Shown piece after piece: positions 12,701-64,000 of a stretch of 64,000 nt of DNA. Source of the DNA: Bispira polyomma (taxonomy: Eukaryota); the NCBI GenBank assembly GCA_965649765.1, contig OZ287752.1:52700001-52764000 (forward strand). The letters are read 5' to 3'. Below the pieces are notes generated by a model, which was not told where the DNA came from, searched no databases, and saw only the letters and a program-made list of their open reading frames with translations. A program made the position numbers and the translations under genes. How positions within the stretch are numbered: position 1 is the stretch's first letter; each line of letters begins with the position of its first letter.

Positions 12701-15700
12701 CATGTGCAACTTAAATAAACTAGTCCTGACAATGGCGTGTTCTTTGAATAAGCTAAATGTATGCTTTGAATTGCTTTATAAGAATACTGTGGTAATAAGA
12801 ATAATTTTAGAAGCATTTGGTTATACATATTTCACCTTTGAATGAATCTGTCCACTTTGAGAGCCACTAAACACAATACTGTCAGTTCCTTGAAATGTAA
12901 TGTCATTGACACTGTAGTTGATCTTTTGTATACCACTCTCTCTATCTTCTACATGTATAGTTAGGCTATAATTATAACATTATAACATAAGTGTTATTCC
13001 ACCTGTACAATTACAAAGACAACAGGGTTTAATAGGTGGCTTAGTATGATCTTCTGTGGCATTAAAATATGTTTAACAAATACCCGAAATTATAAAAGAT
13101 CGAACTTGAAGTAGTACAATGTTTAAATAACTGTACCGAAATGCAGCCTGTATGTTTTAATTTTTTATAAATGAGAATGCATTATAACATCTTAAGGCCT
13201 CTTTATATAGCTTTAAAAGAAAGAAAAAAAAACAAATTGTATGGTTATTCTGTATATATTGAGTATTTCAAGTAAACCTGTATGTATAGCACATGAGAAA
13301 AAAAAACACCCCATCATAGAATTATTTAAACCAATTCAGGTTTCTAATACTTAATTTTACCAGCTATGGTAGTTTTATATGAAACTATTTTTATATCATC
13401 ATATTATTATCAATATTTGTGCAAACATCAGTATCAGCATACCTTGACATATAAGGCTTTCCAGATATTGTTGCATCAACATTTTGCGTAAACATGATTG
13501 TTTGATTGAATATGGCTGAAGAATCATCTAATCTGATCTTAAACTTCTCGCCCTGGTCAATAAAAGGGCAATGATGGTTAGAGTCTATTTTGAATATGTC
13601 GAACATTACAATACAACATTTGCTCTTTATTCTTTATATATTTTGATAGACTTATCTATATGACAGATTGTTTCACAGAAGAAGTTCAGTTTAAGAATCT
13701 CACCTTGCTGTTACCCACAATGTCAGTTGCCACTAGATGTAAATACATTACACTATTCCCTGAAACAGTGATAGATTCTTTGTGTTGCTGGACAGATGGG
13801 GGTAAAATAGTATATTGCCCTGGTGAAGGCTCAGATTCCTCACTAGTAAAGGCTATTCCAAAACGATTTATACCATGGGTATTTGAAATCTGGCTGACTG
13901 TTCTTAATCCATAGTTGTCATCAAATGTAACATCTGTACGTGGTTTTACTTCAGCCAAAAGATTGTTATCATGCAGAAAATTGTTCCTATATCTGAAATA
14001 ATAAATTTGTTATGTGCCCTGTATAAAATAATGTTATAGTTGTCACTCATTTCTATATACAAAGTCTTTGATGCCACTGATAGAAATTTGCTTTGCATTG
14101 GCTGACAGTTAGCTAGTCTTTTTGACAATAAACAACATTTAAATGATTAGTTTAAGTGAAACATTGCATTTTAAGTTATATTTGAATTTGGATATTTAAC
14201 GTTGACTCTAGTACCTTTTATTAGGTTATATTGGGACGGGTAGTTGGAAACGCTGGAGAAAACACTGCATACAGTCGGTCAAGGTTCTGCAGAGAAACCA
14301 GGGGCCCACAGTAAGGAACTACCACCTTTCCCATATAGGCATAGACTGGATTCAAACTCACGCCACCCAGAGGTGAGAGACCAGTGATTGTGAAGCGCAA
14401 TGCTTGCTAACTGCTAGGCCACCGCGGCCCCACATTTTAGGTTATCAAAAAAAAAAGAATTTAAGTTTTACCATATACCTATTTTTCCAGGTAATTGTTA
14501 CAGTTGCTACTGTGGTTGTAATCCAGTATGTAGAGCCGATCACTTTAGTTCCTCCTATCTGTACTGCGTGCTCGTCATCAGTGTCTATTCTACTGGTGTT
14601 GTCATGCAAGAATAATGCACGAGCCTTGACAATGTTGCCAGTATGGTCAACAGCTTCAAAAATGGCACTGTACATGCCTGTCGTGAGATTACAGTTGATA
14701 AATTAATTCATTTGTAGTCAGTTTTCAGTACGCATCTAAAACCTTATGGAGTCAGTACAGTAGCTTGGATTCAAAACAATAATTCTTCTTTAGTAAACTA
14801 AAGAGGCAAAAATCAATCTTTAGCATCAGTAAAAACCATTAGAAAATGATTTTGCTTGCCCCTGGTATAAAAATAAATAACTTATGGCTGTTCTGGTATG
14901 TGATTATCATAGCAACTAGTTATCTTACTTTACCTTGAACAAGGTCCTTCATTTTTGAAGACAAGTGTTTTACCTACCGTGCCCAACGTTATTTTTATAG
15001 TAAGAAAAATTGCTCTACTATTTTGTTTAACGATTAAAAGAAATTATAATGAAAATATATTAGGACAAGTATAATATTTTATCTTTACCCCAATTTAAAA
15101 CAAATTGTTATTAAATAGATTTAAACTATACCTGGATAATTAATATCTATGTAAGGTGACATAGCATCGACAGGTAAGGTAGCTTTTGTAACATACTCTG
15201 CCCTTTCCACAAGCAGACCAGTGCTGTCTACTTCCATCATGTAGACGGTGTACCTGAACTCTTCTAATCCAGAATCATTGTCAATCCAGCCTGCGAAATC
15301 TAACTGGGTAGTTCCATACTGTCACCATCAAAAGAAGAATTAATATAAACCAAACACAGTTTTTGCAGGCAATGTAAATGACAAGATTTTGTATTAACTT
15401 TTATCTCCAATACTCTATAAAGTGACTGTACATTGGTATTCTGGTTTAAATGAATGACCTTATGAATCCTCTCATATTACTCTGCATTCAATTAATATTT
15501 ATTCATCAGAGATTTCAGTATCACATTTTTTTAACCTTGGCTACAGACTTGGCTATAAACTGACAAGTAAGTAGTTATCAAATCAATGATTGCATATACT
15601 AAGCACATATTTAAAATGCTTACCTTGGAAACACCTGGCACAAATTCACATGCATACGGTTTATTAGCAGGGCATGTTCTGTCAGAAAGGCAATGTTTCG

Positions 15701-18700
15701 GGGGCTCAAGGTCAAATTTAATCTGAAAGTCATAAGTTGTTGTGCTTCCAGTAAACACCCTCTTCTCGACGTTATTCGAATTATCCACATATTCCTTATA
15801 GCCTCCAGATTGTGACACTATCTTCAAATTCAGATGGTCCTTGTGAGAGGCCACTGCGGTGTGTGACCAGTTGTATTTCTGGTTGTGACAATTTAGGGAC
15901 TTGTGGGGGTTGTCAGAACTGGGCTGATTTTGACCTGGACTGGTATCAATTATACACGGTATTTGCACTGGACCCCAGATCTGTACATTTGCTGTTAATG
16001 ACAAAACAGTTACAACATAACCAAAAATGGTATTTTATTATCCACTAGTTCTTGAAATGCACCAATTTGGTGTGTAATTCAGACCGGGAATAAGTTAATA
16101 TGGCGTATCACTCAGCGCCATTGTAAATGTATATGAAAACTATAGTAATTACAGGTTTTTAGTGTCAATTTGGCACAATTTTTTAAGGTAGTTGTCAAAA
16201 GTCTTTGACACAAAAGATGAACCTTAAACAACAAAATGGTATATTAAACTCGGTTTTAAGTGTTTTAAAAACACTAATTTGAAGTTAATTATTTATGGTA
16301 ACAATTCTGTACTTCTTTATTTACACTATTTGGGTGTGCCATGATCAAGACTGTTTCGTATGTTTTTGGTGGTTTTAATATTGTTATAGTAAGCAAATTA
16401 ATTCATAAACAGTTAAAAACTCTCCACATGTATAAAATATAAGCATTATGTAATGTTACTGCACATAAAACTATATTTTTAGTGCCATTTAAGTTAATGT
16501 ATAGATTGTATTTAAAGCTAATTCTGTAAATTGACAAATCAGTACTTTTGTAAATATTATATAATTGAATTTTCAATATTTTAGGACTTTTTCTGACTGT
16601 TTTGTATAATATTGTGACCTGTATAAGCATAATTACATTTTATAAATGGACAATAAAAGTAGAAGAACCCTTGATGTGTATCAGAAATATACAATTTTAT
16701 GTAGAAATTTAACCATCATTCATCATTACTGTAATTTTAAGTAGTTTACTATGTTTCCACTATCATTAAAAGATTAGCGATTATCCAATCTAAATCTAAT
16801 ATAGCATGTCAGTTTTGATTTCTAGTTACAGTGGTCTTTAAAGTGACAGGAACAATACACTGTACATACAGAGAGGCTCACTCGACCAACCAAATTGTTC
16901 ACCATAACCAGGTGGTTCTTTTTGGAGGTACTGAACGATTCACCAGTATCAAAACAGGACTATGAAAAAGTGTTCACTATAGGGAGGTGCTTTTCATTTA
17001 CAAGTGTCTACTAACAGGTTTTAAAACATCCATATTTTGTTTTCTGTCACTTTAGTGGAAAGTTTACTATACATCTCTATATGTTATTGTTTATAGCATG
17101 TTGCAAATATTTTAACAAATAACTACAAGAATGAATATTCAAATCACAGTGCAGAAGGGTAAAAATAAGAGATAATTATCTATTTAACAGTTGAAATTTG
17201 TAATAAAAATTAAAGTAGACTAAAAACTAAAATAATTATTAGATAAGTTACTTAGATTCTAAACCTACTCTACCTTTATTATTCATTGTCAACTCTGCAT
17301 ATGAGTTTATCAATCCAAATGGAGCGGCCACCATGTATTCACTAGGTAGAGGTGGTAGGTCACCAGGCAGAGGAAAAACCACCTCATAGCTCATCTCTAG
17401 CACACTGGGCAGTTTGGTATTACTGTAGAGAGATGGCTTAATTCCATACTCATCTGCCATACAATTGCCGTTGAAACTTGTAGTTGATTTCCCTGCCTCA
17501 TTCATTTGAAACTGGAGGCCACATGTCCTAAGTGAGCCTCCTTCTAAGACTGAATAACACCAACACTAACAGGGTATTACAATTACAGGTATATAAATAT
17601 ATATGTAGCATGTGCTCATGTGTCAAGTAATAAAATAATACCATTGAAGTATATACTCATTGTGACTGAAAGGACTTGGGAAATATGGGAGGAAGTCATA
17701 TATTTTAAATTTTGCAGCTAATAGATGGACCTGTTGACTTCAAATGTGACCTCAAGTATAATGCAAAGAAATAGATGTTTACAAATATAGTAATGATATT
17801 CCATTCAGACTAAGGTAGTAACATTTTTATAAATAACTACCAACATCACACATTTGCAGGACCCTGACTTAAGTTATTTATTGTAAACTTACTACACATT
17901 GCACCATTACTTAAAAAGGTTAATTAACACATGCTTACTCTTGCTACAGGATGATCCAGTAAATCCTGAACTACAGACACATTTGCCACTAGTAATGGAA
18001 CACGTACCAGGGTAGCAGTCATTGTTTACAGAACAGATTGCTAAAATACAGGCAATTGGTGACAATGTCATCACAACACAACATATATACTAGGTAAACA
18101 TCATTGAATTAAGTTGGGTGTTAGCAGCTTATATCATGACAACCAGATTAAACAGTGGAAGAACCAGTGCTGAAACACTGTAAACCACCAAAGTTTCCCA
18201 CATAAAAGAACAAACAAGATGCCAACCAACTGGTGAGAGACCAGTGATTGTGAAACATTCACTTCTACCCGCTGGGCCACATCACCACTAAATATCTGAA
18301 ATACAACATTATGTATGTACCCTTAGTAAACTGCATAGTTTCCTTGTAGCCATTTATGTTTTAATATGAACACATTTGGCCGTCTTTCCATTTAAAACCA
18401 TGATGGAATTCACAAATTAAATGACCCAATATGGCAGCTGTTGTACTGATAACTGGCAAAAGTGATAACAATTGTCTATCTAAATACTAACCTAAAGTAC
18501 ATGTTGAACCTGAGCTTCCTGGGCGGCAATAGCAATCTTGAGGTGCTATACAGACTGCATTATTTTGACAGTTGGTACACACAGCTATAGGTATGGTCAA
18601 ATATAAATTAACAAGTATTAACAGCAACTATAAACAATACAAATAGAGCTATACAGCACACCACCCTTAAAAGATACCATCATTTTTTATGTTTATAGCT

Positions 18701-34365: not shown

Positions 34366-34444
34366 CAATACAAAGACTCTTTTTGTCAGAAAAGGCATGT
34401 TTAATTACATTAAATTTTAATAGCAGAAATAAATTTCTAGTTGT

Positions 34445-34656
34445 ACTGTGCAGAGCACGACCCAACAGGGGTCTGCTAGTTCAGTTCAATAGTAAAGCAT
34501 ATACCTTAACCCCTGGCGATTAACCAGTATACTACTGTCCTCTAACTTCATAATCTCTCGACCAATCAGAAATGATGCTACAGCAAGCAGGCTAATTTAT
34601 GTGTGGTCATTCTTCCATTTTGAAAAGGAAACTTCAACTGACAACACGAACAATTT
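34445..34656 (+). repeat. Split direct repeat A1 (212 bp)
   Basis: Identical by eye to 40180-40391; contains CCAATCA and CCATTTTG promoter-like words. Confidence 0.95.
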
Positions 34657-34777
34657 GAATTCGCTATTATACATGATAGGGTTGAAGTTCCTTAATTTTA
34701 ACATTTTAGTTTTTTATATTTTGTTTGTTTTTACATTATAGTTATTAAAAAGTGTTGTATATGCCTGTGAATTAAGA

Positions 34778-36028
34778 ATGGGTAGAACAAAGAAAACATC
34801 AGCATCAGCGGTAAAACAGACCAAAGCAAGACAGCCTACTAAGAGGACGACTTCTACAAAGAAAGGTAGTCAGGTAGCATATGACCCGCTCGTTACAGAT
34901 CTAGCCAGTCCATTTGACCAAGCCGGCTCGGAAAACTCACCCAGTATTATGCCTCAGGGTCTTCAAAATTTTGGCCACCATTCCATGAATCATCTGCCAC
35001 GTGGCGGCACAGATAATGGGGAAATGTTGGCAATTTTACGAAGGTTAGAACAATCACACGTTGTACTTTCACAACGCTTAGACAGAGTTGAGTCGAAGGA
35101 CACTCCGAGTTCTGCGTCACCGACACTACTCCCACCTCGTGCTAAGCAGGCTGCTACAGTGCCGATTGTTACAGTTCCACTCTTACAGCCAGCTCCTACT
35201 TTGCTTCCTACCACTGATTACGCTACGATGGCGGCAGCGCCGATGGCTACAGTTCCTCACACGAAGACAGCTCCAACTTTACTGCTGGGCAATGACTACG
35301 ATAAGGAGGGGATCGTGCCTCAACCCGATGTGTTGAAATCCATGCCAGACGTTCAGGCAATGGTTAATCAGCGCCTAGCAGAATACAGTCTACAAGCACA
35401 AGCGAACTTTGCTCAAGGTAAGACCCCATGACAGAAATCGGGTCGCTTTAACGGTACAGACATACCTACCAACAATCCGAAACTTAGATGGGCCAACGAG
35501 GGTTGGACGGGCGGATCGGCGGAAAAACGACCACTCTTTGATGAACTATCCCTCCCACAGTGGGCATCCGGCCAGCTGGCCAACGCTTTACAAATCTCTG
35601 ATCCTATAGTTTCACGTGAAGTCATACAACAGGTAGTACTAGCGTTACGAGATGCGGCGTCACTCCCATGGGACGTGGTGAGGACAGCCTGGGCTCTGAA
35701 TATGACAGAGGTTGAGGAAGGGCGACTCGCATGGGGAGATACGACCCAGTGGGCGTTGAATCGCCTAAGCGCTTCACAACTCGCTATGTTAAACTCAAAG
35801 GGATCTGGATCTACACTCACACCGTCTTCAAACCAGAACGGCGCAAAAACTATCTGCAAGCTGTATAATTCCGGCAAGTGTGTACATAAGGCAGACCATG
35901 ACAGATTTAAACACGTATGCTGGCATTGCGCCACAGTACTCCACAAAGATATGTATCACCCAGACTTCAAATGCTATAGATCCAACTCGGCTAAGCAAAC
36001 GGATTCTGCACCTAAAGGAAATCAATAG
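34778..36028 (+). CDS. gag: Ngaro Gag-like protein (416 codons, one internal TGA at 35429-35431)
   Basis: ORFs 34778-35431 and 35675-36028 share a frame that is open across a single TGA (KTP*QKSGRF). C-terminal Cys/His fingers CKLYNSGKC..H..HVCWHC..H....C. Confidence 0.85.
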
Positions 36029-38980
36029 GACGTTGACCAACTACCAGGTAGTAGGGCAGACAGTGGAAGTAATAAAAGTAAAATAGATAATAAGAAAAGT
36101 AAAACATTAGTAAACAGTTTTAAATCAGTTAAGTCACCTAGTATTAATCAGGTGAATAGTTTTGAAGGAAGTAAAAACATTCATAGATTTTTGCATGAAA
36201 GTTTAAGGTTGAATAATATTGATTCCACTTACAATAACACACACGTGAGTGAAACTATATGTAGTAACGAACAATTAGATTTCAAGAATCCCTATATGGG
36301 TGAGGTCACGAACGGTAACATGGGCATTCTGCCACATAGTATATATCAACACCCAGTACAGGGCTTCATAGAATGTGATACTGACACATCGATTAAAAAT
36401 ACCCCTTTTAATGTCAGTAATAGCTGCACTGATAATACATATAATATACCAGTTGGCAAACAATTGGGGATAGGTGAACAATCATTGATGGATTGGGACA
36501 ATTCACAGGTAAATAGTGAGTATACAGGCAGCTTTTACTTTAATAATAATAACAACATTTGTGTCAATGATAATTCCCCAATTTGGGGAAGGGAAAATAT
36601 AAAGACAAGTTATATCGTGGACACATGTGTTACGGGCAGCACAGGCTACGGTAGCCAATTGCAGACATGCAATGGTGCATATATGAGAGTGTTAATTTCT
36701 GTAACTAACTGGTTATATGTAGTTCCAAACTATCAGGGAGGTTTGCCTGTCCTATTTCTTCAGAGCAGTGAAAATAAATTGTCAGGTTTTTATGTCATGG
36801 GAAATGGATTTATAGGTCAGTATGGACATTACTATAGATGTTTAGACGAGCCAGTAGGCGAAATTGTGGTCACGGAAACTAGTTACAGAGACATCACTCT
36901 TGTTGCCCAGTTAGAAGGAAAATGTCAAAACAAGGCTACGGTAGCCCATTGCAGACAGGATGCTGATAATGCATATACAAATTTTCAAAAAGACATTTAT
37001 TATAAAGAACATTTTAATATGAATTATACTGAATATGTAACTGATATAATAGATAAAATGTTATATGAAGACAGTGATAATAAAGTATCACTGCGAATGC
37101 AAACGGGACCTAGTAAGGTCAGTACAGTTAAATCCTGTGCAAAAGGTAGAGTGTACACGTCCGCTTCTTCTCCAGAACTAAGGTTACTAGACAATATTTC
37201 AGACACTAAGGTGTTAAAAATAAGTAAGGACTTTAATTTACCAGAAAAAACTAAGGGTTTCTTGGCATTGTCAGAAACAAAATTTAAATTTCAAGGACCA
37301 GATAGGGCTCCCATACACATAACCTCACCACAACAAATGTTAGACTTAGCTAGGATAATTAAGGACACGGGTTACCCAAACTACAGAATGGCACGATTTC
37401 CTATCAACTCTGGTTTGAATATTGAAGTTTGGGAACAGATACTCCAGGACTACCCAGACGAACTTCTCATCCAGTATTTGAAATTCGGTTTCCCTTTGTC
37501 ATTAACAAACCCTGACATACTTAAAATTAAGGAAGTTACTAATCACCACTCTGCCCTTCAACATACTTCAGCAATCACACAATATTTAGAGAAAGAAAAG
37601 CAATGTGGCGCAATGTTGGGGCCCATTGTGGACATCAATAACGATTTATTTCATAGTTCTCCATTGCTCACCAGACCCAAGGACTATACTAAAAGGCGCG
37701 TCATACTCAATTTGTCTCACCCTAAGGGCGCTTCCCTTAATGATAACGTAGACAGGGAAAAATTCGACGGAGTCGATTTTGTCCTTAGATTTCCTACCAT
37801 TGATGATATAATACAAAAGATTCGTAATACCATTAATCCCAAGATCTTTAAACTGGACGTTGCGCGTGCATTTCGAAATTTGAGAGTTGACCCAGCTGAT
37901 GCTGTCAAACTAGGAATTTGCTTTAAAGATAATAAATATATCGATCCTGCGGTTGCGTTTGGCTGGGTCCACGGCTCCGCAGCTTTTCAGCGCTGTTCTG
38001 ACGTGGTCGCTTATACCATGGCCAAACGCAATCACACCATATTCTGTTATATCGACGATTACGTTGGAGTCTCTACTAAAACGGAAGTGGATGAAGCATT
38101 TAAAGAACTGCATGGATTAGTCACCTCTCTCGGTTTACCCATCAACCCGGGAAAAATTAGTAAACCTAGTTCCACAATTACTTGTTTAGGAATAGATATA
38201 AACATAGATGACAACACCATAAGTATTACTACAGAGAAGCTTCAGGAAACTTATAACTTGTGTCTAGAGGTACGCGACAAGAAATGGGTCTCCCGTTCGA
38301 AATATCAATCGATATTAGGTAAACTTTTATATATACATAAATGCGTCAAACCGGCACGCATTTTTATAAATAGGTTACTCATCGCATTCCGAGGTAACAG
38401 CCAGGCGAAACGGATAAAGATCACGCAAGAAATTAAGGCTGACCTTTCTTGGTTCGTTAAGTTTCTATATAGCTACAACGGCATAAATTACATTACTCCG
38501 GTCACTGATACTTATGGCAACCAAGTCTTCATTGATGCATGCCTTACAGGCTTAGGAGCAGTATGTGGTAAGCAAGTATATGCTACTCCATTATTTAATA
38601 TATATGGACAACCATTATCTATAGTACACATAGAAATGTTGAATATACTTATAGCTTTGCGTGTTTGGGGTGAGCAATGGAGACATAATAAAATCATAAT
38701 GCATTGTGATAATATGGCTGTTGTCCTGGTAGTAAGGTCTAATAGAACTAAGGATAAATTTTTGGCATTATGTCTTAGAAATATTTGGTTATTGTCAGCG
38801 ATATATGACATAACTATTGAAATTCAACATATTAGGGGTAAGGAAAATATTATTGCTGACTTGCTGTCCAGATTGTTTTCAGACCAACCCCCACTTGGGG
38901 AACAGTTCAATATTCTTAAGGATAATTGTGACTGGCACAATATACCAATACAGTACTTTAATTTGGACCTTGATATATAA
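36029..38980 (+). CDS. pol: Ngaro Pol: long N-terminal extension + reverse transcriptase + RNase H
   Basis: KRRVILNLS, KLDVARAFRNL, FGW, YIDDY, CLGI (RT); FIDACLTGLG, HIEMLN, HCDN, GKENIIADLLSR (RNase H). The frame is open from directly after the gag TAG. Confidence 0.95.
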   Translation, partial: DVDQLPGSRADSGSNKSKIDNKKSKTLVNSFKSVKSPSINQVNSFEGSKNIHRFLHESLRLNNIDSTYNNTHVSETICSNEQLDFKNPYMGEVTNGNMGILPHSIYQHPVQGFIECDTDTSIKNTPFNVSNSCTDNTYNIPVGKQLGIGEQSLMDWDNSQVNSEYTGSFYFNNNNNICVNDNSPIWGRENIKTSYIVDTCVTGSTGYGSQLQTCNGAYMRVLISVTNWLYVVPNYQGGLPVLFLQSSENKLSGFYVMGNGFIGQYGHYYRCLDEPVGEIVVTETSYRDITLVAQLEGKCQNKATVAHCRQDADNAYTNFQKDIYYKEHFNMNYTEYVTDIIDKMLYEDSDNKVSLRMQTGPSKVSTVKSCAKGRVYTSASSPELRLLDNISDTKVLKISKDFNLPEKTKGFLALSETKFKFQGPDRAPIHITSPQQMLDLARIIKDTGYPNYRMARFPINSGLNIEVWEQILQDYPDELLIQYLKFGFPLSLTNPDILKIKEVTNHHSALQHTSAITQYLEKEKQCGAMLGPIVDINNDLFHSSPLLTRPKDYTKRRVILNLSHPKGASLNDNVDREKFDGVDFVLRFPTIDDIIQKIRNTINPKIFKLDVARAFRNLRVDPADAVKLGICFKDNKYIDPAVAFGWVHGSAAFQRCSDVVAYTMAKRNHTIFCYIDDYVGVSTKTEVDEAFKELHGLVTSLGLPINPGKISKPSSTITCLGIDINIDDNTISITTEKLQETYNLCLEVRDKKWVSRSKYQSILGKLLYIHKCVKPARIFINRLLIAFRGNSQAKRIKITQEIKADLSWFVKFLYSYNGINYITPVTDTYGNQVFIDACLTGLGAVCGKQVYATPLFNIYGQPLSIVHIEMLNILIALRVWGEQWRHNKIIMHCDNMAVVLVVRSNRTKDKFLALCLRNIWLLSAIYDITIEIQHIRGKENIIADLLSRLFSDQPPLGEQFNILKDNCDWHNIPIQYFNLDLDI

Positions 38981-38986
38981 TTTCAG

Positions 38987-39964
38987 GTGCAAACCACTTC
39001 ACACAGAACTTCACCAACTCAGCCTGGAGAAGAATAGGTTCTGCATTAAGGCCCAACACTACAGCTACCTACAATAATCAATTCAGAACATTTACATCAT
39101 TCATGTGTTACGCAGGAATACAAACAATGAATACTCATGCATTCATAGCCTTTCTTGAATACCTTGTTCAGAACGGTTCTTCACCAAGCATGATAAACAA
39201 CTACATTGCTGCCATAAAACATATGGCTAAGAAACTATATTTTGATTTAAGCATATTTGAGAACAACATAGTCTCAATGTTTACAAGGAGCTTGGCTCAT
39301 ACTTCAGGTTTTAGACCCAAACCCAAGGGAATCTTTGAAATACGTCACATTTTCCTCATTTCAAAGGCTTGTGAAATTTTGGATGACCCTCCTTTGTTCA
39401 GAGCTATTTTTCTGTTAGCATTTTTTCGGGTTTTTGCGAATCTCCAACATAGCCCCCCATTCCAGAGCAAAGTTTGATCCAACCCGCCATTTTCTGAGGA
39501 AAGATGTAGTATTTGGTTATCCGGGGGCACATATAATCCTTAAGTGGGCCAAAAATTTCCAAAACAGAACAGACACACATATCATACAGGTACCTCTCCT
39601 TGAGAATTCCATTTTATGTCCAGTTAAGGCACTTCAGGAGTTAATGTCATCTAGGCCACTGGAGGAACATAAACCTCTTTTTGTTAACATACAGCAACCA
39701 CATTATGTGATTATTGAGTCACACGTTAGATCTGCTTTAGCTGCAGTATTACAACACATAGGCATTCCATTAGAATCACACAGTTTTCATACCTTTAGAA
39801 GGTCAGGGGCTACATACGCGTTTAATAACAACGTCTCATTGCAGAACATAATGGCCCACGGCCTTTGGAGATCATCAGCCGTGTGGTCATATTTACACAA
39901 AAATTCTCAAGCTATTTCTGCAATCCCACTCACTTTTGCTTCTTCTATTCCCTCCTTTTCTTAG
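38987..39964 (+). CDS. Tyrosine recombinase (one extra T in the T-run 39421-39426 splits the frame)
   Basis: N-terminal ALRPNTTATY...F..F; catalytic set R (LRISN), K (KWAK), HxxR (HTFRR), W (HGLW), Y (VWSY). Removing one T restores LLAFFGFLRISN. Confidence 0.9.
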
Positions 39965-39971
39965 TTTGGCT

Positions 39972-40391
39972 TGGGTCCTTTTAAAATTGAGGATATGTAT
40001 TTTAAAAACCTCTCTTTTACCTTATATTTTAACCCTACCTGTAAATAGATATATATGAAACATATAAACTAACATGTACAGGAAAATAAAGTCCTCAAAC
40101 ATTAGTTTTACTATCTTTGGAAACTTACACCACTGGACATCTAACCTATCACATTTTCATTTGACCTTTACCAAATTGAACTGTGCAGAGCACGACCCAA
40201 CAGGGGTCTGCTAGTTCAGTTCAATAGTAAAGCATATACCTTAACCCCTGGCGATTAACCAGTATACTACTGTCCTCTAACTTCATAATCTCTCGACCAA
40301 TCAGAAATGATGCTACAGCAAGCAGGCTAATTTATGTGTGGTCATTCTTCCATTTTGAAAAGGAAACTTCAACTGACAACACGAACAATTT
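39972..40391 (+). repeat. B1/A2 junction of the split direct repeats (overlap ACTG)
   Basis: B1 39972-40183 equals B2 41262-41473; A2 40180-40391 equals A1. Confidence 0.95.
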
Positions 40392-40423
40392 CCCACCCCC
40401 TCCCCTTTACCACAGCTTCATCT

Positions 40424-40458
<35 letters not shown>

Positions 40459-40627
40459 TAGGGCCTATCTAGGTCATTATAGTAAATGTTGTTACACAAA
40501 GTTGGCACTATGAAGGATTTAGGCTAATTTTGTTTACGAATATAATGATTGTTGATTTCATTTACACTTATGCAACATTAGGCTTAGCCATTCTCCTGAA
40601 ACTGATTTCCATGATAAGCTTTACCTA

Positions 40628-40847
40628 GGTAACTTACGTGCAACCTCCATGGATTCGACCCCTGGTCCGTGTGGTACTGGTTCCCAGCTTGCAACTACCC
40701 CCTGGTGTGGGCTACCGGGGATTAAAGCTCTGCAGTTGGGAACCTTTATTGCTAGGCGACTAGGTGCCGTAGGACCTGGGTTCTAACCTAGGAGGTGGTT
40801 TTCGTTGAGATGGTAATAGTTAGTCATGAGGTATGGCGAATCCATTG
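40628..40847 (+). ncRNA. Candidate conserved structured RNA element in the Ngaro A2-B2 spacer
   Basis: Nested stems P1/P2/P3 plus junction motifs shared with the minus-strand element at 63416-63661 (see findings). Confidence 0.65.
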
Positions 40848-41261
40848 TTTATGCTGTTTTAGCCACATTTATGTAAACAAAAGTTTACTATGGTAGAATT
40901 GAGGTCCGTTGATACATATAGAGTGTGAGAGTATAAAACTTTCTTTTAAATTGCTTTCATTGTGCATAAATAGTAGGCTATGGTTGTTCAGTATTTGGTT
41001 TACCAAACACATTTGTGATTGGAAAGTTGACGTCGCTGAATGTAACATTATGACTATGGTGTTTATTATTTTATGATATATAGAACTATCGTATGAACTT
41101 GAATTTATGGACTGTGACAATGTTTAGTCTTAGCGTTTATTAGAAATGGTAATAGGGTACTATTTCTTTAATTTTGACTTGTTTATTCTAGTCTTTCAGT
41201 TAATTGGTTCTTAATTATACTGTTATTATTTGTAGTCTTTTGACTTGTTGCACACTTGTGC

Positions 41262-41473
41262 TGGGTCCTTTTAAAATTGAGGATATGTATTTTAAAAACC
41301 TCTCTTTTACCTTATATTTTAACCCTACCTGTAAATAGATATATATGAAACATATAAACTAACATGTACAGGAAAATAAAGTCCTCAAACATTAGTTTTA
41401 CTATCTTTGGAAACTTACACCACTGGACATCTAACCTATCACATTTTCATTTGACCTTTACCAAATTGAACTG
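41262..41473 (+). repeat. Split direct repeat B2 (212 bp)
   Basis: Identical by eye to B1; contains AATAAA. Confidence 0.95.
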
Positions 41474-54650: not shown

Positions 54651-56295
54651 AAAGTTGCAGAACTAGACAAATTAATTAATATGTTAGAAATGCCATGGAA
54701 TGCACTTAAATGTACTATGTTTTTCTAATTTTTGTTGTACTAAACATTTGCATGAACTACAGTTGTACCATGATAAAATAATGTATATATAACAAGAATC
54801 AGCATATAATACAATTCCAGAAGCAAAATGTAGTGGCAGTTCCGAAAAAAGGTTGGTAAAAGGTTGATGACCTTGTAAGATCAAAGATTGTGATGTAGTT
54901 TTGACCTCAATGTCAAAGATAGGTTGCCTTACACATTTTAGATCTGTTTTGCTGAACACAAGGTTTGAGAATTTTATTTTGTAGATATTAGTAAGGCTAT
55001 ATACACGGTAGAAAAGTATGACAGAGGTATAACTTTAAAATATTACTAAGAATTTTAAAAGTCCCAATTGGGAGCACATAAAAACATAATAGCACAATAG
55101 CAATAATATGATTAAATAGTAGTAGCTACACATCAGTATTGCCAGTAAATCATTTATATATAATATAACGTCCAATTAATGGATCAGCTAGGTTCACATA
55201 TGAGAACACGTTTGTGGGACTAGGCACAACTAAGGCAATATTAAGCCTCAGAACAAGACTTCATTATAGGCATTACCAATCCAATTAACATTTTGTAAAG
55301 AATTTGTTCACAACACAGCAGTACAGTTAAATAGGCCCTTTCGACTAGAGTAAGAAAGTTTAATGTATCAATCAAATATATCTAGTGAAATTAATTATAC
55401 ATAGCATATCTATTGCTTTAAAATCATGCACTCAACAGTATCATACACAAGGAGTCAAAATTTAGAGCCTAGTGCCTTTGACACCTAATTGCCTAGCAGG
55501 GGTGGCAACCCGCCTCACAGAAACCGCTATTCTTCCCTGAAACCCTTAGGCGGTGAACCCAAGGTGAAGGGTGATCTGCCTCCACACGCCATTCGTGATG
55601 ATAATACTATTAATCATTAAGACAATAATTACTCTGTTTGTGAGTATACTGCAACAGTGTTTACAGTTGGCAATCTAGGATAATGGTTCATGGCTAAGTA
55701 ATAGTATGAGTGTTATATGTGAAAACTATCAATTAAACAGATGTATTTTAAACCAGAAAGGGTACTACAATTTTAGTGTAACTAAATTGTACATGTTCCA
55801 ACACTGACCAGCATATTTCATTTAATCAATGACATATTTCTGGAAATTATTTATTAAAGGTTGATTTAACTTTATTTAAGATTTTGTAAATTTTATGTTT
55901 AGTTAAAAGTGAGATAAAGGAGTACATTATGTACTGGGTTGTATAAGGTGACCTTATGCCCAATAGAGTAATATGTGTTTGCTGTAAATTTTAATTTTAA
56001 TTATTTAATGACATTAATAATTGTATATAATATTTTTATCTGATACATAAGATGTGGCAGACCACCATGTGACTGCATATTAATCAAAACAAGTGTATGG
56101 ATAAAAAAATATATGTAACCTACTAGTTTGCCGTACAAGTAAAATTAAAGTGTAATAGGGCATGTGAGAATTTTGCTGCCGAACTCAATTGAAATTTCCA
56201 GAGGGTTGTAGTTTATTTGGGGTTATATTTTAATATTATCTTGATCGATCTGTCGCAATATGAAAACCAATCAGATGCATATTGTTGGAAACCAG

Positions 56296-56402
56296 GGGCC
56301 GTATTCACGAAGGGACTTAGCCAGGTCTTAGGCTTAAATCTAGCACAAAAGTATACTGATTTAAGCCTAAGACCTGGCTAAGTCCCTTCGTGAATACGGC
56401 CC
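56296..56402. mobile_element. 107-bp perfect-palindrome MITE with CAG target duplication
   Basis: 45-bp perfect inverted arms (56296-56340 / 56358-56402), 17-nt loop, CAG on both flanks. Confidence 0.9.
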
Positions 56403-58120
56403 CAGCACATATCAAACTGATGATGAAATGTTATTGTTTATAACTAAGTTATACAGGAGACTTTTGTGGTCAACCAAAATGTTGTCCGGGAATAAAATAA
56501 CATTAAACTTCAAGCCTTTTATAAAAACTCTAACCTCTTGTTAAAATTTCTGTTGCATAACATGCAACTCTTATATAGTCAGTGACAAGGTTTGTCCTCC
56601 AAAAAGTTATAGGGAATCCTATAATATAGAACTGATCACCTAAAATGCTATTCTGTATCCAAGGATGTTGTCCACTTGTGACCATTCCGGTTATTGTACC
56701 TTGGACCTTTAAATTAACAGAACAACTTATCAATGGGCGGCAACTTCAGACTAAATTATTTAATCTAGGAAATTTTATTTGTTATATTCACTAAATAAGA
56801 TAATGAATGATATTATTGCATTATTAATACATATATCAATCGTGGCTTGTAACACAGTAAATATTTTGTAACTCTCTGTCAATACTACATCCATGGATAT
56901 TAACACCTCCAGTGACTTGGTAAAATTGTTACCCTTACACAGTACTGTGGCTTACCAAAGTAATGCTTTTATAGCTGCTATATCCCTTTATTAACTTGAA
57001 CAGTAACTCTTAAACCAAATCAAAATGAATAGTGTAACTATTCTAAGTTTGATTAATTAAATTAACTATTCTTTATAAAATTTGTAACATAGACTTAAGG
57101 TTTTAAAACTAATTTCATTGGGAAGCTTCTTTACATATTAACTGGTAAATCTTTAAGACTCAAAGACTCCAAGCTGATACCTGGTGTAAGACTTGAATAT
57201 ACTCAGTTGGTTAGAGGCTGGGCTATTGAGACCAATATTTATCAAAGATAAACTATTTCATAATACGACAATGTTATCAACGTTATACTTGTATTATACA
57301 TACAAAAGATACAATTCAGATCATACGTTTGAAAATGTTCATAAAAAACTTAATTAGAGCTGTATTTCATGATATGACAACTGTATGGAAGTTATTATAT
57401 TATATCTATAAAAAGATTCAACTTTAATAGAAGTTATCATTGTCTCTATGAAAGATTCAATTCAATTTTCAAAATGTTCCAAAAAAACTTAATTAATATA
57501 TTGTAAATTACAACCAATTTTAACCCTTTACCAATTGTGAAAACATTTGCGGTGCACAATTTTTTCCCGCTAAAATTTCCTGTTCCATAGTATTTTGGGG
57601 GGTTTTAATTCCATTTGTGTGTATATGTATATATTCTTTTAGTTGCTATTCTTTTGCATGACAGTTGTACACTTTGCGTACAAAAATGAAATAAATAATA
57701 ATAATAATTATATGTGTACTGTATGTAGAAGATAATCGTCAAGTGTTCTGATATCTTTCAATGCAAATGGTTCAAAGTTCCTGTTATCTGAGAAATATCA
57801 ACACAATTGATGACCAAAAAGACCACTTGTGTGTGGGTGATGTATATGTCAACAGTTTCTATATAGTTATATTACAATATAGCATTATGAATGACTTATT
57901 TACTCACAGTTGGCCATGATGAAACACGTCTATGGCTCTTAACATCTGCATTGTAAAACACTTACAATTTATTATCAGTTTCTGTCACCTTCCATTCGCT
58001 TTTCGTATGAACAAATACACCAATGCTAGCAAATAATGATTTGCATTCTATGGCGACATATAACCAGAACAATTGTAATGTAAAGAGTACCTAAGCATTT
58101 TAATACATAATAATACTAAG

Positions 58121-58268: not shown

Positions 58269-58569
58269 TTGATAACCTAATAAAGTATCTTATATGAATA
58301 ATGTAATTTAACAGTACACCACGTCGTGGTACATAACAGCATTAATATTTTTTTGAACTTTTAAAACCGTGTGATGGAATTACAATGTGATTTCCTTAAA
58401 AGCTTAAGTTCTCAATATCAGGTGTGTTAATGATCGCTATTAATAATCTATTTATGTATTATGTAGTACAATTTGTGACATTCAACGGTGTTAGCACGAC
58501 TGGATAAGTTAACCTCTCTGGTTTTGGTATTTTTTTGGTAATGGATTAGCTGTATCAATAACTCTTACA

Positions 58570-59649
58570 ATGCAAATGATACCAAGACAAGAAGTTGTCA
58601 TTCACAGCTCCACTATAAGCCACAGATGGCTGTTAGTATTTTTGTCGTTATCAACTGTGTTGTGTACTATACTGGTATACACTTTCACCATCGCCAAATT
58701 CGTCCAGCCAGATCTAAAATATTACATTCGTTACCAAGGTTGCCATGACAACAACACAGGAGGGGGTAAAGGAGGACATGTGATACATAATGGTACCACT
58801 GGTCAAGGTTGGTGTCAAAAGTGCTTCATGACTTATAAAGAAGCAGATTACCCAGGTGGTAGAAGATTAGGGAATCATATTTACAATGTGGCCTCATTAA
58901 TCGGCATTGCTAGGTTGAATCGTATGACGCCTCTCTTGCCGGAAAATGCAAGGATATTTTTGTCGATGGATGTTCCTGTTCAGGTTGTGAAGGTTTCTGC
59001 TTACAAGAAGTTTGTCAAAGAGAGTCATCACTTTAAAGAAGTCGATAGCAGAAAGTTTGACCCTCGGGTGACAAATCTCACATGTAATGTGACATTGGTG
59101 GGTTTCTTTCAGTCGTGGAGATATTTGAAAGAAGTGCAGCATCTCATCGCAAATCAGTTCAGGTTTAAAGAGAAATTTGTCACTAAGGCACAGAGTTTGT
59201 ACGATAGTTACATCAGAAACAAGCAGTCTGATAGTGTCATTGGAATCCATGTACGCAGAGGTTTTACTTTACAAAAACTACAAAAACGTGGCTATGTCAC
59301 TCCAGGTCCATCCTATTTTCAACATGCGATGGAATATTATCAACACAAAATCTACCCAAATAAGACTCTACTATACCTGATTAGTAGCGACGACATCAAA
59401 TGGTGCAAGAAGAATATTAAAGGAGATCAAGTGATTTACTCTACTGCAGAACATCCAGAAGTAGACATACTCCTTCAGTCTTTCTGTAATGACTCTGTTA
59501 CATCCCTGGGATCGTTTGGCTGGTGGTGCGGTTACTTTGCTCAGGGACAAATGGTCTACTTTAAAGATTTTGCACGACCAGGATCAGCTGTCGATAAGGA
59601 AGTCAATATAACAGACATGTTTTATCCACAGTGGAAAGCAATGTCTTAG
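58570..59649 (+). CDS. Galactoside alpha-1,2-fucosyltransferase-like (GT11), type II membrane protein, single coding exon
   Basis: 359-aa ORF with N-terminal TM (WLLVFLSLSTVLCTILVYTF); motifs RLGN...ASLIGIA..N, GFFQSWRY, IGIHVRRG, YF..AM.Y, SDDIKWCK, GSFGWW. Confidence 0.92.
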   Translation: MQMIPRQEVVIHSSTISHRWLLVFLSLSTVLCTILVYTFTIAKFVQPDLKYYIRYQGCHDNNTGGGKGGHVIHNGTTGQGWCQKCFMTYKEADYPGGRRLGNHIYNVASLIGIARLNRMTPLLPENARIFLSMDVPVQVVKVSAYKKFVKESHHFKEVDSRKFDPRVTNLTCNVTLVGFFQSWRYLKEVQHLIANQFRFKEKFVTKAQSLYDSYIRNKQSDSVIGIHVRRGFTLQKLQKRGYVTPGPSYFQHAMEYYQHKIYPNKTLLYLISSDDIKWCKKNIKGDQVIYSTAEHPEVDILLQSFCNDSVTSLGSFGWWCGYFAQGQMVYFKDFARPGSAVDKEVNITDMFYPQWKAMS

Positions 59650-61598: not shown

Positions 61599-62615
61599 AT
61601 GCCTCAGCAACATAATACTAGAAACAAAAACATTAATAAAAGTAACACAGAAAAAAGTGCTACCAGTTGGGCCGATGGCAATCAGATGGGTGGTGAAACG
61701 GAAGCTGTTGAAAGAACTGAAAATAACAAATCTTTGTCTCAAAAGCTGGACGAACTGTTGGCGGTAGTAAAAGTAATGGGAACTCAGTTACAAGGTCAGG
61801 AGCAACAGATCCGACGACAGGAAGAACGAGTCAGCTAAAACGAGATTTCAGCACTGCCGTCAGCCCAGAGCTTGCCTAAGATTGCTAGTCAATCTACAGA
61901 AGAGAAAAAAGCGAGACTACCTTCCTTCGAAGCACTCAACAGTGATTTGCAGATCCAAGCTGAGGTGCAACGTCAGTTGATAGATTATAACGACTCGTCT
62001 AGACCAGAATCAAAAGGTAAAAACGCTTCATCTCTTAAGTCAGGCAGATATCGAGTCGGGGTTCATAAAGTGCATACCTAGATTACCTGGCCACAGGACC
62101 ACTGTACTGTAGTTCATAGTAATAAACAGCCTACGTATGACGAAATGTCAACCATGCAATGAGTGCAAGGTTTACTATGCTGTGCGTTGGAGGAAACTGA
62201 TACTGTTCTTACAAATAATATACTAACATACCATGTCAGTCTCATGCAAGACGCTATAGAGTTGGATGTAGGCACAGCCAAAAGGGCGCACGCAGCCATG
62301 CTCCAGGAGATTGAGAAAGGGCGTACAAATTGGAGTAATATTGACCTGATAGAAAAAATTAGGGCAAGAAATACCCAAAGGATAAGTAACCCAACTTCTG
62401 AATTTAAATGTGGCCATGGCAGAGTGGTCGAGTCCAAAGTGTGTACTTTATTCAATAAAGGTAGCTGTCGATTAGAAAAGGACCACGTTACACGTGGTAT
62501 CAAATATGAGCATTACTGTAGTTATTATTTCAAGGAAAACCGGGGTCGCCCTATGTCCAAATGTGTACATCAAAAAAATAACAACAAAGAACATAACAAA
62601 GAACAACATGTTTAA
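61599..62615 (+). pseudogene. gag: Decayed gag of a second Ngaro-like element
   Basis: ORFs 61599, 61872 and 62163 share one frame with three stops. Collinear with the 34778 gag: QAEVQRQLIDY/QAMVNQRLAEY, KSGRY/KSGRF, PTYDEMS/PLFDELS, CTLFNKGSC..H..H.C. Confidence 0.85.
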
Positions 62616-62930
62616 CATAGAATTAATAAGGCCACAAAATGTTGACGGCAGTTCTTTACCTATAGACTGTCTAGACAGTGGCCCGGGTGGTGGTAATATT
62701 GGCAACAGTCCCCGTTTGTAAGTTTCAAGTGCCAGGTCAAAGATGTTAAGTGGTTCAAGTTGTAAGTTTATTGAAGTTAGGTAACACAAGATAATAAAAG
62801 AATTCACTATGAGGATTCATTTTTTACATGTTAGTAGTTATATACATAATATTACAAATCAGGTAAAATGCTTAAAATTTTTTATGAAACATCACAAGCC
62901 CCAACTAGGCAAAGCACATAATAAAACACA

Positions 62931-63415: not shown

Positions 63416-63661
63416 AATAATTCGCCATTTTAGTTTTCTTTTGCTTACTCAAATCAAATAGCTGTTTTTGGAAACCCCTGGCTTTGGACACCGAATCGCC
63501 TAGCAGATGAGAGTTAAACCTCTTAGAGCTTCTATTCCACTCTGGAACCTTAGACAAGAACTCAGAGGAAAGTATAAGAAGGCAGAACCCTCATTCCACA
63601 CAGCCAGAGGAGTATTACAGTACCCTTTTTGCAGTAAGTCAAAACGACTCCGTAAGTAACC
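63416..63661 (-). ncRNA. Second copy of the candidate structured RNA element
   Basis: Same motif order as 40628-40847, with different but complementary stems. Confidence 0.65.
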
Positions 63662-64000
63662 AAATAGACATAATTTCACGTTCACAATATGTTATTATCC
63701 TATACTTTCACTAATTTTCAATTCCAACTCAGAGTGCCAATTGGCTCTCAACTGACTTAATTTATAGCTGTAGTACTAAGGGGAGGTGGTGGGAAGTTAA
63801 AATAAATTTTTGCTGTTGTTCCTTCGGTTTCAGTTTTCAATATGGAGGTGTAACCCAAGGAAAAACTGGGAATAGCTAATTAATTAAGCACTGTGATTGG
63901 CCCTGGTGTAGCTATAGTAAAATGCCTTGAGGATAGCTATACCTAATTTTTTTGCTTAAGGTAGGGTAATATGTAGACCGAGTTTTCTGTCCTCGACGAT

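Follow-up and report, generated by a model that had tools for sequence, protein, structure and literature searches.

The question raised by positions 63416-63661 of a 64,000-nucleotide stretch of Bispira polyomma DNA (contig OZ287752.1 of assembly GCA_965649765.1, positions 52,700,001 to 52,764,000 of the forward strand; hereafter the window) is whether they hold a second, independent copy of an RNA motif seen in the spacer of a tyrosine-recombinase retrotransposon in the same window, element 1, and, if so, what kind of RNA this is and what it might do. An initial annotation had proposed such a copy, with an extended helix P3. The analysis indicates that the motif, named motif A, represents a genuine RNA family that is undescribed though its general kind is known; it is unusually mobile, and its role is predicted. 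Taken alone, the segment is a second copy in a dead remnant, and its worth lies in the family that it exposed.

The letters, spacing and orientation reported by the initial annotation are all present on the minus strand, to which every coordinate in this paragraph refers. Motif A occupies 63468-63615 and belongs to a long-P3 subtype, scoring 92.3 bits against model R1, which was built from 28 copies including both well-preserved window copies. It is 67% identical over 130 aligned nt to the motif of element 1, an alignment scoring 85.5 against at most 57 in 200 shuffles. The 5' strand of helix P1 (63602-63610) pairs with 63483-63475, the junction-closing pair being U-A in this copy. GTGTGG (63601-63596) supplies a GU junction and GUGG, the latter predicted in the RNAalifold register to pair with CUGC (63506-63503) via tandem U.G/G.U. 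The long form of P3 (63535-63570) carries an 18-nt weakly paired insert, AGTTCTTGTCTAAGGTTC, at 63562-63545; AAGCTC (63531-63526) forms the long strand of a C-loop-like internal loop (G-C-N-C-U); and the invariant 3' core (63487-63505) reads UGC-UA, followed by P4, a 4-bp hairpin with a 6-nt loop. The third word, TGCTAGGCGA (63505-63496), has two exact matches in the window and three with one mismatch, where 0.99 would be expected, and the three words in order occurred in none of 5000 shuffles of this spacer. A CCCACC tract at 63793-63788 lies 127-372 nt upstream of the two ends of the segment, in agreement with the ~130-370 nt first estimated. Outside the motif, the GAGTC-GTTTT-GACTT hairpin (63650-63636) is real, its stem preserved and its loop varying inside its own family, and its absence from the other families inspected marks it as family-specific; the GGTTACTTACG that precedes it (63661-63651), however, is not kept even within that family. 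The fold of this copy alone barely beats shuffles (z -1.48, 13 of 200 equally good), so that the structural evidence is comparative.

Two further copies lie in the window. That of element 1 (40655-40787, plus strand), of the short-P3 subtype, scores 124.4 bits, as a training copy, with a fold z of -3.72, and a decayed third copy at 55461-55601 (minus), outside the training set, scores 40.5 bits (E 1.6e-8). The initial annotation had allowed that shared words might reflect neutral identity between close elements and had expected the parent element of the second copy, with its B1 and A1 repeats, reverse transcriptase (RT) and tyrosine recombinase (YR), beyond position 64000. None of this copy's family was found there. 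Independence was borne out by its full-length relatives, which are 57-58% identical to element 1 in RT and 68% in YR, with four-fold sites near saturation (matching at 0.30-0.34 against 0.27-0.29 expected; RT counts 28/83, 25/77 and 38/113). Local alignment of the two 3' regions yielded a 33-nt tract at the end of the A repeat and 13-17-nt scraps only; the 3' flanks of both window copies score above the 75th percentile of shuffles, and faint residual similarity is possible there.

Comparison across families defined a module of 115-150 nt with an invariant core of ~45 nt. Its fixed part is a three-way junction in which P1 is joined by a 2-nt GU link to P2, which opens with G-C and the tandem U.G/G.U; a UA link leads to a hairpin of 4 bp, with G.U as its closing pair and 6 nt in its loop, after which come 3 linking nt, the last of them A. 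On 37 de-duplicated cores, 31 compensatory branches were counted, against a null mean of 3.2 and maximum of 16 (0/10,000), on a tree derived from the same letters as the cores and with one locus, L481, left out as mis-anchored. A held-out alignment was 87% paired, compared with 39-49% in slid controls. The junction-closing P1 pair is C-G in 25 alignment rows and U-A in 11, with four compensatory branches at this pair. Three invariant G.U pairs occur in 35-36 of the 37 cores and A.C in none, which assigns the RNA fold to the sense strand; as invariant pairs do not covary, their pairing is inferred. An earlier UGG/CUA pairing was dropped in favour of GUGG/CUGC, since the latter extends into covarying pairs, although over the invariant letters themselves both registers are equally paired. 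A pseudoknot between the P3 loop and AGCUC, which had at first seemed possible, proved inconsistent.

The picture of a fixed core within a variable periphery stood in part. The periphery does vary around the core, and the 3' core columns are near-invariant also in loci picked by recombinase rather than by motif (alignment A4, many rows of which are close relatives). AAGCTC, by contrast, is not invariant, reducing in most families to G-C-N-C-U opposite A-N-C and being absent from one family (L314/L320/L328/L329). This C-loop-like pattern resembles the C-50 loop described in the accessible part of PMC2441787, but as a sub-module only and with one family lacking it; the selected C-loop receptor of that source was ruled out as a relative, the oligo being complementary to its construct's cap. 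Extended P3 is a genuine, recurrent subtype (10 of 28 rows, with P3 reduced in four), yet by inspection its extra letters give no consistent stem; overall, P3 may be long, short or absent.

Invariant unpaired junction and loop letters within a variable periphery had suggested a ribozyme, and a new self-cleaving or otherwise catalytic RNA that processes the element transcript was considered. Catalytic autonomy would explain the free exchange of the module described below, and ribozymes are frequent in other retrotransposons according to the available part of PMC6765202. Nothing found supports catalysis, however: no Rfam ribozyme was matched at gathering score, nor at E values of up to 3-5, and the internal positions of the motif argue against end-defining cleavage. 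A cut in the RT-YR or the YR-B1 interval would separate the template from the 3' repeats, while the examples in that paper release the element from a co-transcript; because internal cleavage would cut the template, we regard a catalytic role as unlikely. Likenesses to HDV, pistol, twister-sister, riboswitches and xrRNA were rejected on strand order.

The P1 5' strand raised the possibility of a tRNA-capture site, in which this strand would base-pair with a host tRNA at its variable loop and T arm, recruiting it as primer, with the P1 3' strand as a mask. A profile of the strand reaches 21.6 against the host tRNA-Pro complement (Asp 17.4, Ala 17.3; at most 13.8 in 300 shuffles), and the 3' half reaches 18.0 on tRNA-Pro (shuffles at most 7.3); the loop has the form U-N-G-G, N being G in 1 of 38. 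Against this, the loop alone is not Pro-specific (3.0 versus a shuffle mean of 1.7), the second copy's own family and several others lack a tRNA match, nothing complementary to a tRNA 3' end was seen, the tRNA panel covered only some isotypes, and descent from a tRNA or tRNA-derived repeat accounts equally for the likeness. Such capture is improbable. ARAGORN called a cloverleaf in none of 16 motif loci; with introns allowed it called one antisense family-1 copy, implausibly.

Element 1 (34441-41473, plus) provides the best view of the host. It reads A1-ORF1-RT/RNase H (RH)-YR-B1-A2-spacer-B2, with split direct repeats that are 100% identical and open reading frames (ORFs) matching Pfam RVT_1, RVT_3 and phage integrase; a stop within ORF1 and a frame break within YR are its lesions, and ORF1 includes a Cys/His-rich stretch. 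No Pfam methylase match was found, and the RT ORF stops 36 residues past the RVT_3 match, which separates it from DIRS and PAT. By layout and domain content these are Ngaro-like tyrosine-recombinase retrotransposons, sharing the layout given in the accessible parts of 10.1101/2021.08.05.455354 and PMC7192593. A splice-donor-like site lies at the end of ORF1 (window 35418) and an acceptor-like site before YR (about 38986); such sites are found again in most families shown, and splicing is probably how YR is expressed. No spliced joint at the predicted sites appeared in three contig sets of unspecified type, and contigs showed no transcript ends. A long A run occupies 40428-40455, in the element 1 spacer just past A2.

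Genome-wide pattern searches gave 591 matches with one pattern and 822 with a 3' core pattern, with none for either reversed control. Sampling by recombinase was added, since such patterns select for motif words, and it recovered the motif at 48 bits or more in 27 of 60 loci; two other samples gave 13 of 60 and 4 of 40. Among 119 labelled recombinase loci, a set partly sampled through the motif and counting some sites twice, the motif lies in the A2-B2 spacer in 50, the RT-YR gap in 11 (the L115/L123 family) and the YR-B1 gap in 6 (the L319 family); in the L123 family it falls inside the predicted intron. A different folded RNA, motif B, was found in 17 of these loci, while 35 have intact B repeats and neither motif. 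Five complete elements scanned end to end with filters off had no motif (best score 13 bits), and the family of one of them has more than 20 copies at 94-97% YR identity. In public contigs at 85% likeness (run X1), ~200 fell on the element 1 flanks against 14,000-16,000 on the motif (~70-fold), a depth that is not a copy number.

Motif B (L431:3290-3525, plus; ~230 nt) lies directly after the CCCACC tract in a separate recombinase clade, in the slot that motif A fills elsewhere, and also occurs in L364, L365, L367, L371, L428, L433, L436, L440 and L441. In nine sequences, double changes occur at 23 of 60 predicted pairs; its 3' end is a 4-bp hairpin with a GUAA/GAAA-type loop, and Rfam gave no match. 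Other spacers were noted in their own right. In the L032 clade (L410-L418, L420), a splice-acceptor-like site and a possible short exon stand in place of a folded RNA (the L032 spacer is G000:C5 about 52775290-52775660). In a motif-less multi-copy family (L502:2540-2600 region, L507), the CCCACC tract is followed by an unrelated small hairpin. L337 and L423 have tandem A-spacer duplications giving two motif copies each, and at a chimeric junction in L392 sequence of a motif-less family runs into half a motif.

Motif identity did not follow recombinase identity (rho 0.09, 24 elements). Alignment of element 1 with L457, L493 or L066 is limited to the motif, 137-154 nt at 81-86%, beside YRs only 39-52% identical for L457 and L493 (four-fold sites 12/33 and 4/20). 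The corresponding motif clade has support of 100/99 and is rejected by the YR data at p-AU 1.7e-63, the reverse test giving 0.0075; the groups were chosen after the similarity was noticed, and L392 and L444, the latter a separate insertion, were omitted from the tree labels. Exchange of the motif between families appears the simplest reading of these sequences.

Flexible position, exchangeability, dispensability and replaceability point to a module with an accessory role, whose ligand all the families would share. We tentatively place first, while holding it as less than probable, an accessory docking site on the sense strand of many Ngaro-like families for a host protein that would aid export or stability of unspliced full-length RNA. 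Given splice-like sites at the ORF1 end and before YR, the RT-coding genomic RNA would keep an intron; the module would pass between families by template switching or gene conversion; a ligand tolerating such swaps would more likely be host-encoded than element-encoded; and the benefit would be export or stability, as with retroviral transport elements. This reading is ranked first because of the predicted retained intron and because transport elements are gained by recombination; in a primate retrovirus, one so acquired took over from the ancestral element (PMC11379458, available part). Several points weigh against it. Motif-less families carry the same splice-like sites, so that splicing does not predict the motif; splicing itself is predicted; Rfam gave no match to any transport element; all data are from one genome; extreme conservation of one subtype could mimic exchange; and the architecture suits an RT-binding element at least as well.

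That last possibility, a module binding the element's own RT or ORF1 protein and boosting packaging or initiation of reverse transcription, like the CR4/5 domain of telomerase RNA, comes close behind, though it too is held as less than probable. As described in the accessible part of PMC4993307, CR4/5 has a similar outline (three helices, a short conserved loop capping a 4-bp stem, and an invariant A between long helix and hairpin), acts from a separate position, and in some lineages is only partially needed. The Cys/His-rich stretch of ORF1 fits such binding, two repeat-mediated strand transfers would permit any internal position, and the DIRS and Ngaro papers searched name no priming site in their accessible parts. 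On the other hand, near-identical motifs stand beside recombinases 39-52% identical, and no co-evolution with element proteins is thus visible, and the five complete elements without the motif, one from a family of more than 20 copies, also speak against it. The 4 bp and the A between helices are present in motif A, but its loop has 6 nt rather than 5, it is multi-copy in transposons, no template/pseudoknot domain was found, and the lack of any Rfam telomerase match likewise sets it apart from a telomerase RNA. A bolder form, which we consider rather unlikely, would make it a transferable RNA activation domain for RT convergent on CR4/5, or a new ribozyme class, traded between families and moved within elements. 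Were it true, motifs A and B would together show that Ngaro elements have a slot in which one functional RNA can stand in for another, and could disclose how reverse transcription begins in these elements, for which no primer site is known.

The second copy itself is an A-spacer-B remnant between fragments of an older plus-strand element. On the minus strand, the 3' part of its A repeat, ending in the CCCACC tract, spans 63788-63973 by alignment to full-length relatives, and the rest is at window-equivalent 64464-64520, beyond which the sequence is unrelated. Positions 63974-64000 begin a 490-bp inverted-repeat insertion within A (strand not assigned), with a 9-bp target duplication, which we take to be Mutator-like. 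The closing B repeat (62705-62897, minus) is 93-95% identical to B1/B2 of relatives; its end agrees with L065 B2 and its 5' edge is possibly ~15 nt further up. RT and YR lie upstream in 10 of 16 loci of this family taken at 10 kb and are missing there in the other six, and both repeat pairs are visible in nine; the window copy, retaining A and B only, is inferred to be a solo left by A1-A2 recombination.

The many copies without a recombinase element within 7-8 kb would also fit a small non-coding RNA gene, or a hitch-hiking module, that is transcribed from the promoter copy in A2, in solos too, and acts as a decoy in trans or spreads selfishly, as would the predicted mini-exon in the same slot of the L032 clade. 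In two families, however, the motif is not downstream of A2, and no target duplications or fixed ends of the module were seen, though no search was aimed at them; we find this account hard to credit. Nearby, at window 62037-62519 and G000:C5:52764000-52781500, at least three more recombinase elements are nested, including the old plus-strand element hosting the solo, an intact plus-strand element and a minus-strand fragment. Elsewhere, eight near-identical copies of the family (L003-L010) lie at ~29.4-kb spacing in G000:C3:15664416-15875190, a tandem amplification. The window also holds a perfect 46-nt inverted repeat (56295-56403), a small multi-copy element present in several other loci, and a 378-aa open frame with a glycosyltransferase family 11 domain (58513-59649, plus).

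Rfam gave no match at gathering score in the window and only weak unrelated matches in 8 and 10 loci. No description of the motif was found in the open literature, a search excluding subscription papers, repeat databases and supplements, and the accessible part of PMC3856414 held nothing further. Beyond the source genome, where metagenomes and viral contigs but no other animal genome were searched, the motif was not found: 56 metagenome loci and 80 of more than 120 viral-contig loci, matched with loose patterns, showed no element 1 protein match and no motif fold by inspection, three further viral-contig matches scored 13-14 bits, and all were judged chance. A structured RNA moving between families and positions is surprising regardless of its ligand. 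The module's invariant core, its natural variants, which number in the hundreds, the families that naturally lack it and its natural substitute make priming, packaging and RNA export of tyrosine-recombinase retrotransposons directly testable.

Compared with known systems, the elements share with Ngaro elements (10.1101/2021.08.05.455354 and PMC7192593, accessible parts) the A1-ORFs-B1-A2-B2 repeats, RT/RH with YR and the lack of room for a methylase after RH, but have an A2-B2 spacer of 0.05-1 kb holding a folded RNA, where those parts mention neither spacer nor motif. With the HDV-like, hammerhead and twister ribozymes of retrotransposons (PMC6765202, available part), motif A shares a fixed core, variable periphery and patchy distribution among families; it matches none of those families, and is internal where theirs lie at the element boundary. 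Compared with the transport elements CTE, MusD MTE and MER11-derived CTE (PMC11379458, available part), it is smaller, has no sequence match and has a ~45-nt invariant core and a predicted role; like them, it is structured, non-coding and placed in cis, and it appears to be gained and replaced by recombination, as they are.
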